A stretch of DNA of 30,789 nt from an uncultured Ruminococcus sp. (GTDB taxonomy: Bacteria; Bacillota; Clostridia; UBA1212; UBA1255): contig CACZOW010000065.1 of the NCBI GenBank assembly GCA_902782885.1, forward strand, positions 1 to 30,789, in the 5' to 3' direction. Below, one piece after another: positions 22,947 to 27,004 of this stretch (positions are counted from its first letter, which is position 1; the number at the start of each line of letters is the position of its first letter). The notes beneath the pieces were generated by a model. It ran no database searches and had not been told where the DNA came from. It was given only the letters and a program-made list of their open reading frames with translations. The translations under genes and the position numbers were made by a program.

Positions 22947-24350
22947 CTATATGCCCAGCAGCCACTTCGCGACGCTGAAGTAGATCAGCAGCGATACGGC
23001 GTCAACGATGGTGGTGATGAACGGGCTCGCCATTACCGCCGGGTCAAATCCGATCTTCTTTGCGAACAGCGGCAGCGTGCAGCCGATGAACTTCGCGATG
23101 ATGATGGTGAAGCACATGGTGATGCAGACGACCAGCGCGACCGTGATCGACACATGCTCGTGCAGCAGCAGGTTGTTGATCAGAAGGATCTTCAGGAACG
23201 TTGCCACCGCCAGCGAAATGCCGCACAGAATAGATACGCGGGATTCCTTCCAGATGACCTTGATGATGTCTCCGAATTCGATCTCGCCCAGCGAAATACC
23301 GCGGATGATCGTAACGGAGGCCTGGCTGCCGGAGTTGCCGCCGGTGTCCATCAGCATGGGAATGAACGCGGTCAGAACTACCTGCGCCTGCAGCGCGTTC
23401 TCGAAACCGGAAATTATCATTCCGGTGAATGTGGCCGATACCATCATCAGCAGCAGCCAGGGGATACGGCTCTTCCAGATATTGAACACGGAAGTCTTGA
23501 GGTACGGCTTCTCCATAGGCGTGATAGCGGCCATTTTTGCGAAGTCTTCTTCCGCCTCTTCCTGGATGACGTCGATGGCGTCATCGACCGTTACGATACC
23601 CACGAGCCGGTGTTCGCGGTCGACGACGGGCACCGCCAGCAGGTCGTATTTCTCGATCAGTTTCGAAACGTCTTCTTTGTCCGAATCGGTGGTGGTGTAG
23701 ATGACGTTCTCATCCATTATGTCCGAGATCACCGCGTCCTGTGGGGAGGTGAGCAGCGTCATAACGGTGACCAGACCCAGCAGTTTGCGGTTGCGGTCGA
23801 TCACGTAACACGTGTATATCGTTTCTTTGTTAAGACCCGTCTCGCGGATCTTGTCGAACGCTTCCTTCACCGTCATGCTTTCGGTAAGGTCGACAAATTC
23901 GATCGTCATTATGCTGCCCGCGCTGTCTTCGGGATAGTGCATAATGTCGTTGATCTTGGCGCGGCGTTCGGGGGAGATGCTGCGCAGGATACGGCGGACA
24001 ACATTTGCGGGCATTTCTTCGATGATATCGATAGTATCGTCAACGAACACGTCGCTCATGACCCGCTCCAGTTCTTCGTCGGAAAACGCGCGGATCAGCA
24101 CTTCCTGCTGATCGCTGTCCATTTCCACGAAGGTGTCCGCGGCCAGTTCTTTGGGGAGTATCCTGAAAATGAGAGGCACGTTTTCAATAGGTACCTCTTC
24201 GAGCATCATTGCAATGTCTGCCGGTTCCAGATCTTCCAGCAGTTCTTTTAGTTTGGAGTAATCCTTTTTTTCGATCAATTCGTAAGCGTGCTCGATCTTT
24301 TCTTCCAGCATGTCTTCGGCTTCGTTTACGAATTCATTATCCTCCTGCAT
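22947..24350 (-). CDS. mgtE: Magnesium transporter MgtE
   Basis: Acidic N-domain; CBS pair (YPEDSAGSIMT, LVGIVTVDDAID); RIPWLL, DTGGNSGSQ, DPAVMASPFITTIVD. Start moved to ATG 24350 behind AAAGGAAGG. Confidence 0.95.
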   Translation of the reverse strand: MQEDNEFVNEAEDMLEEKIEHAYELIEKKDYSKLKELLEDLEPADIAMMLEEVPIENVPLIFRILPKELAADTFVEMDSDQQEVLIRAFSDEELERVMSDVFVDDTIDIIEEMPANVVRRILRSISPERRAKINDIMHYPEDSAGSIMTIEFVDLTESMTVKEAFDKIRETGLNKETIYTCYVIDRNRKLLGLVTVMTLLTSPQDAVISDIMDENVIYTTTDSDKEDVSKLIEKYDLLAVPVVDREHRLVGIVTVDDAIDVIQEEAEEDFAKMAAITPMEKPYLKTSVFNIWKSRIPWLLLMMVSATFTGMIISGFENALQAQVVLTAFIPMLMDTGGNSGSQASVTIIRGISLGEIEFGDIIKVIWKESRVSILCGISLAVATFLKILLINNLLLHEHVSITVALVVCITMCFTIIIAKFIGCTLPLFAKKIGFDPAVMASPFITTIVDAVSLLIYFSVAKWLLGI

Positions 24351-24600
24351 AGGCTCTTCCTTCCTTTCGTTCCGGGCTTGCCGGTGATTAAGTAAAGGGG
24401 GCAGACTGTGCATACGGACCCTGTGATTATGTTTCAGATCGCGGGAAAATGTTCAGAAAGATTTCGCAAAGTGAAACAAATCTGAGCATGGGTGATAAGC
24501 GGTGTCGTTGTCAACACTACTTCGCCCGGGTACCGCACTACTACCTCCGGTATCCATTTGTTTCACCTCACGATATAATTGGATTTCACGGATTGACCGC
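24351..24600 (-). promoter_or_regulatory. Long structured 5' leader of mgtE, candidate cis-regulatory RNA
   Basis: About 250 nt between promoter and start codon. An 18-bp helix (24556-24573 with 24464-24481, three G-U pairs) encloses two hairpins; a further hairpin can occlude the mgtE SD. Confidence 0.6.
24453..24557 (-). CDS. Putative 34-aa leader peptide (MDTGGSSAVPGRSSVDNDTAYHPCSDLFHFAKSF)
   Basis: GAGGTG SD 6 nt before the ATG, within the mgtE leader. No recognisable homology; may not be translated. Confidence 0.3.
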   Translation of the reverse strand: MDTGGSSAVPGRSSVDNDTAYHPCSDLFHFAKSF

Positions 24601-24607
24601 TTTCAGA

Positions 24608-24637
24608 ATTATAAACTATTTATTATTTTTGTGTCAA
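24608..24637 (-). promoter_or_regulatory. Sigma-A promoter for the mgtE leader
   Basis: Minus strand TTGACA (24637-24632), 18-bp AT-rich spacer, TATAAT (24613-24608). Confidence 0.8.
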
Positions 24638-24662
24638 CCCCCTGTTTTTGACGGCGCGCGTA

Positions 24663-24671
24663 TGGTATACT
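24663..24671 (+). promoter_or_regulatory. Extended -10 element upstream of the ABC-DUF1854-ABC operon
   Basis: TG-G-TATACT about 45 bp upstream of ATG 24716. No correctly spaced -35. Confidence 0.45.
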
Positions 24672-24715
24672 ATCTTTTGACCGGCGCGGATAAGGCCCAC
24701 GGCAGAGCGGAACGT

Positions 24716-27004
24716 ATGATCGAGATTTCCAAATTCAGAGCAGAAGCGAAAACAGCACTCATTAAGCACGGTATAAGACCGGAGGATATTGTCATCTTTG
24801 CCGAGACAGATCTTTCGATGGAACTTGACCATGCCGCGGTCTATATCGTCCTCACCGAGGAGCGGCTCCATATTATCGAAGGCCAGCTCATGATCTCCGG
24901 CAGACCCGGTAAAATGCGCAGAAGCGCCGCGGTCGCCCGTACGTTCATCGAGACCGATTCCCGGGAATACGAACGGGACAAGATAAAAGCTCCCGCGGTG
25001 GAGGAACTGATCTCCGCCGGGTATCTGACCGCGGAAGTGGACGGCAATACCCTCCGACTGGCGGCCATGACCCGTACGGCAATGCGCGACGTGCGGCTTT
25101 TCGTGAAGTACGCGGGCAAGTATCTTTCCGACGGCAGCACCGAGACGGATTCTGATGATTTTAAGGACGAAAGATTCTGCCCTAAATGCGGCCGCCGCTA
25201 CCCGGATCCGAACCGTAAGATCTGTCCCGGCTGCATGGAAAAAGCCGGCATTTACAAACGGCTGCTGGCGTTTTCAAAGAAGTACAGATGGCAGATGCTG
25301 GCGGTGCTGCTCTCGATTACCGCATTGTCGGCGCTGGGCGTGATCGCGCCGTACGTGTCCACGTCGTTCTTTTATGACAAGGTATTGACCCCCGGGAGCG
25401 GGTGGTTCGGCCACATTTCCTTCGTGCTGATACTGATCGTCGGGCTGCGCCTGATGAGCGCGCTCGTAAGTTCGCTCACGGGAGTTATTTCCGCCCGCGT
25501 TTCCGCGTTCGTGACGTATGACCTGAAACGGACGATCTTCACCGCCATCGAACGGCTCTCGCTGTCGTTTTTCACGGCGCGCCAGACCGGCGGACTGATG
25601 AATCAGATCAACAACGACGCCAACACGATATACTGGTTCTTCTGTTCGGGCGTGCCGGAGTTTTTAAAAAATGCCGTGCAGCTTATTGCGGTCTTCGTGA
25701 TAATGTTTATCATGAATCCGGCGCTGGCGGGCTTTTCCGCGGTGATATTGCCGCTGTTCGCGTACACGGTTTGGCGGATCAACCGGCTCATGATGACGCT
25801 CCATCAGCGGAGATACGCCAGTTCTCGGTCAATGAACAGCGCGCTCTCCGACGCCCTCTCGGGATTCCGGGTCGTCAAGACCTTTGCCCGTGAAAAAGAG
25901 GAGACAGCACGCTTTGACAAACGTTCCCGCCGGCTTGCCTACGACGGCCGCAACGTGACGATCTTCAACAACACGGCGTTTCCTTTTGCATCGTTTATTA
26001 TGTACCTGTCGAACATCATCGTGTGGGCGATCGGCGGCTGGATGGTGATCTCCGGATACGGCGGCATGACGTACGGAAAACTGATGGCGTTCATCGCTTA
26101 TGTGGGCCTGATGAACCAGCCGATGTTCATGTTCGTGGATATGATATACTGGTTCTCCGACTGCACGAACGCGGCGGGCCGGCTGTTCGAGATCGCCGAT
26201 GCCGAACCGGACGTAACCGAACCGGAGCAGCCGGTCATTCTGGGAGAGATGCGGGGCCGGGTCGAGTTTCGCGACGTAGAGTTTTCGTATGACAAAGCGC
26301 GGAAGGTGATCGACGGCGTTTCGTTTACCGTGGAGCCCGGCGAGACGCTGGGACTGGTGGGCCATTCCGGCGCGGGCAAAAGTACGCTGGCCAATCTGCT
26401 GATGCGGCTCTACGATGTGAACGCGGGCGAGATACTGATCGACGGGGTCAATATCAAGGATCTGTCTTTTGCCGAACTGCGGGCGGGCGTGGGCATCGTT
26501 TCCCAGGAAACATATCTGTTCGTCGGCACCATTGCGGACAATATCCGCTACGCGCGGCCCGAAGCCTCTTTCGAGGAGGTATTGACCGCCGCGCGGATCT
26601 CCGGCGCGCACGATTTCATCGTTAAACTGCCGGACGGATATGACACGAAGATCGGGTTCGGGTACAAGGATCTGTCCGGCGGCGAACGCCAGCGGCTGTC
26701 CATTGCCCGCGCGGTGCTGCTGAACCCCAGGATACTTATCCTGGACGAGGCCACGGCGGCAATGGATACCCAGACCGAGCGCCGCATCCAGGATGCGCTC
26801 ACGCTGCTCTCCAAAGGCCGCACCACCATAATGATCGCACACAGATTGTCCACGTTAAGGGACGCGGGCAAGCTCGTTGTCATCGAGAACGGAAAAGTAC
26901 AGGAGACCGGCACCCACAACGAACTGCTGGTCAAAAAGGGAACATACAGCAAACTGTACACGCTCCAGCTGGAAGCGCTCAAAAACATAGGAGTGGAAGA
27001 ATAA
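24716..27004 (+). CDS. Type IV ABC exporter (TMD-NBD) with N-terminal soluble domain and Zn ribbon
   Basis: GHSGAGKST, VSQ, LSGGE, ILILDEAT, AHR; multiple TM helices; CPKC-x11-CPGC just before TM1. Start at ATG 24716, because 24449 overlaps the mgtE leader and promoter. Confidence 0.9.
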   Translation: MIEISKFRAEAKTALIKHGIRPEDIVIFAETDLSMELDHAAVYIVLTEERLHIIEGQLMISGRPGKMRRSAAVARTFIETDSREYERDKIKAPAVEELISAGYLTAEVDGNTLRLAAMTRTAMRDVRLFVKYAGKYLSDGSTETDSDDFKDERFCPKCGRRYPDPNRKICPGCMEKAGIYKRLLAFSKKYRWQMLAVLLSITALSALGVIAPYVSTSFFYDKVLTPGSGWFGHISFVLILIVGLRLMSALVSSLTGVISARVSAFVTYDLKRTIFTAIERLSLSFFTARQTGGLMNQINNDANTIYWFFCSGVPEFLKNAVQLIAVFVIMFIMNPALAGFSAVILPLFAYTVWRINRLMMTLHQRRYASSRSMNSALSDALSGFRVVKTFAREKEETARFDKRSRRLAYDGRNVTIFNNTAFPFASFIMYLSNIIVWAIGGWMVISGYGGMTYGKLMAFIAYVGLMNQPMFMFVDMIYWFSDCTNAAGRLFEIADAEPDVTEPEQPVILGEMRGRVEFRDVEFSYDKARKVIDGVSFTVEPGETLGLVGHSGAGKSTLANLLMRLYDVNAGEILIDGVNIKDLSFAELRAGVGIVSQETYLFVGTIADNIRYARPEASFEEVLTAARISGAHDFIVKLPDGYDTKIGFGYKDLSGGERQRLSIARAVLLNPRILILDEATAAMDTQTERRIQDALTLLSKGRTTIMIAHRLSTLRDAGKLVVIENGKVQETGTHNELLVKKGTYSKLYTLQLEALKNIGVEE

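Follow-up and report, generated by a model that had tools for sequence, protein, structure and literature searches.

What does the leader of mgtE, the gene for a Mg2+ channel, do in an uncultured Ruminococcus sp.? In the stretch of DNA analyzed here (contig CACZOW010000065.1, 30,789 nucleotides, called the window below), about 250 nt separate the promoter from mgtE, and a preliminary description had proposed that this segment forms an undescribed Mg2+- or ribosome-sensing switch. We consider it reasonably probable that the segment is a cis-acting, ribosome-coupled regulatory leader of mgtE. The features on which the argument depends are listed in the order of transcription.

24637-24632 (TTGACA) and 24614-24609 (TATAAT), minus strand: promoter, sigma-70-type, agreeing with the consensus at 12/12 positions
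~24604-24601, minus strand: predicted transcription start
24589..24601, minus strand: 5′-terminal hairpin GCGG-UCAAU-CCGU, from the consensus fold
24556..24573, minus strand: 5′ arm of helix P1, where the uORF Shine-Dalgarno sequence (SD) GAGGUG (24569-24564) lies and the uORF AUG begins
24453..24557, minus strand: uORF1, 34 codons plus stop, MDTGGSSAVPGRSSVDNDTAYHPCSDLFHFAKSF, AUG at 24557-24555, from the ORF list
24528..24555, minus strand: hairpin P2 (GG-A-UACCG ... CGGUA-C-CC) with loop GAGGUAGUAGUG, from the fold; doubles as segment "X," complementary to the C-rich block
24490..24527, minus strand: hairpin P3 (GGGCGAAGU ... inner stem GUGUUG/CGACAC ... CCC), from the fold
24464..24481, minus strand: 3′ arm of P1, through which uORF1 reads, stopping 8 nt beyond
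24394..24417, minus strand: C-rich block CCGUAUGCACAGUCUGCCCCCUUU, anti-SD/anti-start segment, containing AUG 24413
24372..24384, minus strand: small hairpin CCGG-CAAGC-CCGG, inside the anti-SD:SD helix
24348..24367, minus strand: ribosome-binding site of mgtE, AAAGGAAGGAAG (24367-24356), followed by the AUG start (24350-24348), conserved in the genus
22947..24350, minus strand: mgtE, Mg2+ channel gene, 467 aa, with Pfam domains PF03448, PF00571, and PF01769 (MgtE_N+CBS+MgtE)

Both promoter hexamers are kept in the alignment of 7/7 sequences from the genus. An RNA-library contig matches 24352-24617 exactly, and nothing mapped to 24624-24870 in four runs. This contig is at most a weak hint of leader transcription; because its depth is 2 and it extends past the −10 box on the upstream side, it cannot locate the start site or serve as proof of transcription. 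The true start of mgtE is supported as AUG 24350 by the homologues, which begin MQ(D/E)..., by the 467-aa length and the Pfam domains, and by the SD at 24367-24356. AUG 24413, in frame with mgtE, opens a 488-aa ORF (extension 24351-24413, minus strand); the database representative of a near-identical cluster (P0003, 96% identity) is also 488 aa long, and thus gene callers use this AUG. It was rejected as the mgtE start in view of the homologues, the SD at 24367-24356, and a frame that is not conserved in sister species. On the plus strand, an ABC-transporter ORF of 851 aa stays open for ~89 extra codons over the whole mgtE leader (24449-24715). Its ABC_membrane domain starts only at residue 290, a likely start (MIEISK) lies near 24716, and the upstream extension is probably spurious. 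The leader thus misleads gene callers twice: they extend mgtE to 488 aa by starting at the upstream AUG, and on the plus strand they call an ORF of 851 aa.

Firmicute mgtE is a textbook target of the M-box riboswitch. A scan of the window against Rfam 15 gave no family at the gathering score and none real at E ≤ 10 in 24250-24750, the sole match at E ≤ 10 being a chance one to RSV_PBS (15.6 bits versus a cut-off of 47). Neither the M-box (RF00380, cut-off 44 bits) nor the Mg_sensor (RF01056) covariance model matched the leader; the same tool recovered M-boxes in the two positive controls, L055 (104.4 bits) and L075 (93.5 bits). The earlier judgment that the leader is not an M-box is borne out by these searches. 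The element published as the "mgtE motif" is not this one and is restricted to Thioalkalivibrio (PMC11109978), and no description of the present device was found in the literature searched or in Rfam, Pfam, and NCBIfam.

The minimum-free-energy (MFE) structure of the 118-nt stretch 24577-24460 is a three-way junction composed of the closing helix P1 and two inner hairpins. In P1, UCGUGAGGUGAAACAAAU (24573-24556) pairs with AUUUGUUUCACUUUGCGA (24481-24464) over all 18 nt, with 15 Watson-Crick and 3 G-U pairs. The junction reached −46.1 kcal/mol, compared to −28.1 ± 3.5 kcal/mol for 200 dinucleotide shuffles of the same stretch (z = −5.15), none of which was as good (0/200). The whole leader, folded as 266 nt, had ordinary stability (z = −1.0); only the 5′ domain is unusually stable. 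Hence, the 18-nt pairing and the junction of the preliminary description were reproduced with every element in place, as was its placing of the GAGGUG SD and the AUG of a 34-codon ORF in the 5′ arm of P1, with the ORF running through the 3′ arm. The length of the helix fared differently. The full 18 bp are present in G000 and otherwise peculiar to G004, in which an A-U pair is replaced by G-C as a compensatory change, whereas genus-wide only the inner 13 bp, GGUGAAACAAAUG/CAUUUGUUUCAYY, are kept.

To this structure we fitted an alignment of 11 sequences. P1 is represented in the model by 12 pairs, with 96.9% of cells paired and compensatory changes in 4 pairs. The 5′-terminal hairpin, which is probably a 5′-end stabilizer, showed compensatory changes in 3/4 pairs with 100% of cells paired. 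P3 differs between species in sequence and length; compensatory changes were seen in 4/11 of its pairs and 81.6% of cells were paired, in a part where the alignment is unreliable. P2 is nearly invariant in sequence, and its pairing is imperfect, with several broken pairs and little covariation. Taken as a whole, 91% of cells were paired versus ~42% when the partners were slid, and 12 pairs carried compensatory changes, a number reached by 0/500 shuffles; having been obtained from an alignment fitted to the structure model, these figures lean towards structure.

The uORF is introduced by GAGGUG-AAACAA-AUG and in G000 has the N-terminal peptide MDTGGSSAVPGR. Its conserved residues are Asp2, Gly4, Pro10 (24530-24528), Gly11 (24527-24525), and Arg12, encoded by CGA (24524-24522). 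The peptide consensus is M-[DE]-[ATS]-G ... P-x(0-1)-G-R, aligned as M-D-(A/T)-G-(G/S/N) ... (V/K/D)-P-(x)-G-R, and residue 2 is Asp or Glu in all aligned peptides. Across the uORFs, Ala/Thr3, Gly4, and Pro are each encoded by 3 to 4 synonymous codons. Moreover, the sole indel in the genus is 3 nt long, and a strong SD (GAGGUGA) lies 6 to 9 nt ahead of the uORF AUG in nearly all leaders. Coding selection on the uORF is supported by this pattern, and because the peptide is conserved with synonymous codon changes, we infer that the uORF is translated. The conserved Arg is CGA in ~26/31 uORFs, compared to 4.8% of Arg codons in the long ORFs of the window, where CGA is the rarest Arg codon, and 7.3% in mgtE genes of the class; the invariance of GGG-CGA could be an RNA constraint at the base of P3 rather than a codon effect.

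Conservation of the peptide is limited to the first ~12 to 15 residues, and the remainder varies in sequence and length (21 to 48 aa). The reading frame stays open beyond the 3′ arm of P1, though the frame across the arm differs between species. Since, in addition, the peptide after the Arg is not conserved, the 3′ arm is conserved as RNA. The uORF peptides matched no Pfam or NCBIfam family. In the subgroup formed by L054 and L055, the motif takes the form V-P-R-R, with CGA used twice in a row (CCC CGA CGA and CCG CGA CGA), resembling the PLPRRR stretch of enterobacterial MgtL.

The leader, whose hosts are uncultured rumen Clostridia, was found in 6/7 other species of the genus; the seventh had no leader and no mgtE match either. 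The blocks conserved in the genus are the promoter, the 5′ hairpin, the SD and AUG with the first ~15 uORF codons, the P1 3′ arm CAUUUGUUUCA, the 24-nt C-rich block, and the mgtE ribosome-binding site, while P3, the linker, and the small hairpin vary. Conservation and covariation in relatives, which the preliminary description had put forward as a check, were thus both found. An exact-pattern scan of genome contigs returned 6 rumen MAGs and 2 chance matches, and a scan of metagenome contigs returned 4 contigs, three scoring like the known sequences and one a near-variant, so that little diversity was gained. In a neighboring genus of the same family, mgtE is 55 to 57% identical and lacks the leader; there (L027, L028, and L029; genus g3), the gene is preceded only by a terminator and an SD.

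Outside the genus, the distribution depends on the means of detection. Over the 25 genomes of the family and the 46 of the order, covariance models R1 and R2 located the element in no genus but its own, and in 150 genomes of the class they gave no real match; the single class match, L056, lies inside a coding region and was discarded as a false positive. A weak match was obtained in G023. On metagenome contigs, MgtE homologues with 60 to 73% identity have the same module upstream, and R1 detects it in L043, L046, L048, L050, and L052. R2 does not detect L054 or L055, in which the peptide motif persists. No MgtE like those of the leader-bearing relatives L046 to L055 was seen in the 46 genomes of the order, and the distribution suggests either joint horizontal transfer of mgtE with its leader or paralogy of the two genes.

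We also searched 31 leaders, independently of the alignment, for duplexes between the SD/AUG segment and the downstream part of each uORF. A start-hiding duplex was present at z < −2 in 23/31 leaders (median z, −3), with the 3′ partner mostly ending 0 to 20 nt ahead of the uORF stop. The P1 arms of different lineages are wholly different yet complementary, as in GUGAAAAGAAUGG/CCGUUCUUUUCAC (L048) and GACCGAAUGG/CCGUUCGGU (L055). Furthermore, a sample of 401 genomes of the class contained mgtE in 231, and among the 26 best loci examined (58 to 64% identity) a uORF was found in 20, starting with AUG in 17 and with GUG or UUG in 3; of the rest, 1 had an M-box only and 5 showed neither M-box nor uORF. 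A narrow DNA motif pattern gave 9 matches in the 401 genomes versus 0 for the reversed control, and 8/9 were directly upstream of mgtE. All of these sequences are kin, so conservation counts overstate their independence.

Two of the related leaders have a layout of their own. In L055, the uORF module lies between an M-box (759-930) and mgtE, the order over 759-1201 being M-box, terminator-like hairpin, uORF AUG at 1021 (MDTDSPSMTAVPRR...), and mgtE; these are two different sensors in series on one leader. In the long leader of L052, a run of repeats resembling GATCCGAAAAGATC/GATCAAAAAAGATC (940-1010) follows the uORF and precedes an intrinsic terminator (~1105-1150).

How the state of the uORF could reach mgtE was addressed by folding. 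The 24-nt C-rich block is identical in 7/7 genus genomes, wobble positions included, and both the MFE and the consensus fold pair it with the mgtE SD and AUG in an imperfect helix. In the whole-leader MFE structure, the CCGG/CCGG hairpin is enclosed by pairing of CCUUU with AAAGG of the mgtE SD, just as first described. The stem of this small hairpin varies by species (CCGG/CCGG, CCGU/ACGG, or CGC/GCG) yet stays a hairpin. The complementarity of block and mgtE SD is no better than composition predicts (z ~ −1). We also considered whether the mini-ORF that opens at AUG 24413 in the mgtE frame (MHSLPPL...) is a proline leader peptide. It was rejected as a conserved coding frame because its wobble positions are invariant, it has only 7 codons in G002, it loses the mgtE frame in G006, and L043 shows a 2-nt shift of the block.

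When either arm of P1 was blocked in the folding, the G-rich P2 strand paired with the C-rich block. The mgtE AUG then became more accessible, its predicted unpaired probability rising from 0.46 to 0.76-0.90 in G000, from 0.28 to 0.43-0.80 in G004, and from 0.34 to 0.49-0.84 in G002. This rise was clear in 3/7 genus members, absent in G003, and mixed in G007 and L043. The duplex between the P2 strand (X) and the block has −22.6 to −24.8 kcal/mol in six genus members (L043 left out); as an "anti-anti-SD" pairing, it is energetically strong but no better than in shuffled sequence (z ~ −0.9). With the segments under a ribosome footprint forced single stranded, equilibrium folding gave no clear switch and no consistent opening, and the mgtE SD was ~0.3 unpaired in every state. 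The in silico coupling of uORF state to the mgtE ribosome-binding site is therefore weak. With regard to termination, the leader has no intrinsic terminator in this genus, Rho is encoded in this genome, and the linker has a C/G ratio of 1.1 to 1.75 (C>G). Other lineages carry intrinsic terminators (e.g., L052) or compact SD hairpins directly after the uORF stop, which argues for a shared sensor with differing expression platforms.

On these grounds, we propose the following model. The mRNA would start with a small stabilizing hairpin, followed by the translated 34-codon uORF. Since the uORF SD and AUG constitute the 5′ strand of P1 and the 3′ strand lies near the uORF end, initiation and the folded junction are mutually exclusive; the preliminary description had said the same of translation and the helix, and for initiation versus P1 this is clear-cut. 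Each ribosome translating the uORF must unwind the whole junction and finish on or just past the 3′ arm of P1. Its progress would be sensed at the conserved Met-Asp-(Ala/Thr)-Gly ... Pro-Gly-Arg(CGA) segment, either through destabilization at the acidic N terminus or through a pause at Pro-Gly-Arg(CGA), and the outcome would depend on cytoplasmic Mg2+, by analogy with MgtL, CorL, and MgtQ. Meanwhile, the mgtE SD and AUG lie in the predicted imperfect helix with the invariant C-rich block. Two relays are equally possible: once the junction opens, the G-rich P2 strand could compete for the C-rich block, or Rho-dependent polarity could act on the ~80- to 110-nt C>G linker, as for MgtL. A relay through reinitiation at AUG 24413 may also operate.

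In this model, the leader is probably a Mg2+-responsive attenuator in the manner of MgtL/mgtA, CorL/corA, and MgtQ/mgtB. We infer Mg2+ as the signal, as well as the stalling point and the path and sign of the coupling; what points to Mg2+ is that the gene regulated is mgtE and that L055 has an M-box in tandem. The uORF peptide is not proline or acid rich like MgtL, which counts against this model. Of the two kinds of switch named in the preliminary description, the ribosome-sensing one is favored: a sensing ribosome is likelier than an aptamer that binds a ligand, because conservation of the uORF peptide, with synonymous codon changes, extends well past the lineages that the RNA models can recognize.

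The main competitor of ribosome sensing is a true riboswitch, in which the junction would be an aptamer binding Mg2+ or another ligand that stabilizes P1, and the uORF would be the expression platform or incidental. The junction is indeed compact and very stable; P1, P3, and the 5′ hairpin covary; and the unpaired junction and loop nucleotides (GGAGGUAGU and CCCGGGCGAAGU) are highly conserved. The sign would also make physiological sense for a Mg2+-stabilized fold hiding the uORF start, provided that translation of the uORF opens the mgtE site in the way seen with MgtQ (PMC8092293). On the other hand, the conserved "unpaired" nucleotides vary chiefly at third codon positions with the amino acids kept, and the peptide motif persists in L054, L055, and the class loci, where R1 and R2 fail. 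Moreover, P2 is almost devoid of covariation, and in L055 direct Mg2+ sensing is already provided by the M-box upstream of the module. A riboswitch thus appears unlikely, though it is the strongest of the alternatives.

Two further explanations do without a ribosome-coupled switch, and we regard both as highly improbable, the second marginally more so. The uORF could encode a trans-acting small protein, e.g., a MgtE partner or regulator, with the helix merely tuning its synthesis. MgtS, MgtR, and MgtU act in this way on other Mg2+ transporters. The conserved N terminus and the strict linkage of the uORF to mgtE would fit such a protein, and there is a parallel in Mycobacterium tuberculosis, where a small, conserved ORF with no assigned function is under M-box control (PMC12810186). 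However, only the short N terminus is conserved, and the remainder differs in sequence, length, and even frame across the P1 3′ arm; its composition follows from a U-rich strand pairing with the purine-rich SD, and no Pfam or NCBIfam family matches. Alternatively, there may be no switching at all: a stable 5′ element would set the mRNA half-life, and the mgtE ribosome-binding site would be constitutively weak. This would agree with modeled ribosome states that hardly alter SD accessibility and with a whole leader that is not unusually stable, but it accounts neither for selection at the peptide level and a rare codon close to fixation nor for the covarying start-hiding helix and the recurrence of the element before mgtE across many families.

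Returning to the ribosome-coupled leader, we put forward a bolder version tentatively, at somewhat short of an even chance. Met-Asp-x-Gly ... Pro-x-Gly-Arg(CGA) would be a new kind of Mg2+-sensing nascent chain, with CGA as a programmed decision point and the junction setting how frequently the uORF is read, and the ribosome would be the Mg2+ sensor of mgtE in a large part of the Clostridia, replacing or backing the M-box. Among the closest clostridial homologues sampled, most have a predicted translated device, not an M-box, ahead of mgtE, and abundant gut and rumen lineages are represented. If the ribosome does sense Mg2+ here, such sensing would have a wide distribution and more than one origin, many clostridial mgtE genes without an M-box would be accounted for, and the element would offer a compact natural model for nascent-chain and rare-codon effects.

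To our knowledge, leader-peptide control of Mg2+ import is known only from the enterobacterial mgtA, corA, and mgtCB. The closest parallels are MgtL/mgtA of Salmonella and Escherichia coli (RF01056) and CorL/corA, where, as here, the leader of a Mg2+ importer gene has a short uORF within its first stem-loop. How efficiently mgtL and corL are translated depends on intracellular Mg2+ and, by way of Rho, decides the fate of mgtA and corA (PMC11552253). An N-terminal Met-Asp/Glu is common to MgtL/CorL and uORF1, and a C-rich leader segment and Rho are also present here. In contrast, the leaders share no sequence or covariance-model similarity and come from different phyla, and the gene regulated here encodes the MgtE channel instead of a P-type ATPase or CorA. 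MgtL is rich in Pro and acidic residues, while uORF1 has P-(x)-G-R with a fixed CGA. Furthermore, uORF1 is longer, its 34 codons spanning a three-way junction, and the output of the mgtE leader includes predicted SD/AUG sequestration, unlike that of MgtL/CorL.

MgtQ-mgtB of Salmonella is instructive for the output: Asp2 and Glu5 of mgtQ destabilize the ribosome, which releases the ribosome-binding site of mgtB (Choi et al. 2021, PMC8092293). uORF1 likewise has Asp at position 2, which is essential in MgtQ, and the ribosome-binding sites of both mgtB and, by prediction, mgtE reside in an inhibitory helix. Destabilization of the uORF ribosome decides the release of the mgtB site, and our proposal likens the mgtE leader to this. 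On the other hand, mgtQ has 8 codons, sits between two genes, and directly overlaps the inhibitory stem, whereas uORF1 ends ~100 nt before mgtE, so that release would need a relay such as the P2 strand versus the C-rich block. The M-box (ykoK leader, RF00380) occupies the same place in Firmicute mgtE leaders and presumably serves the same physiological purpose; it is, however, an untranslated aptamer of ~170 nt with direct Mg2+ sensing, and an intrinsic terminator usually comes after it, while the conserved core here is a predicted translated ORF. Translation attenuation of the ermC type resembles the mgtE leader in its short leader ORF, alternative pairings, and sequestered downstream SD, but its signal is an antibiotic in the ribosome tunnel, the start of its leader ORF is normally free, and it has no link to ion transport. 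Altogether, the element is best grouped with leader-peptide control of Mg2+ importer genes, as a new form of it.
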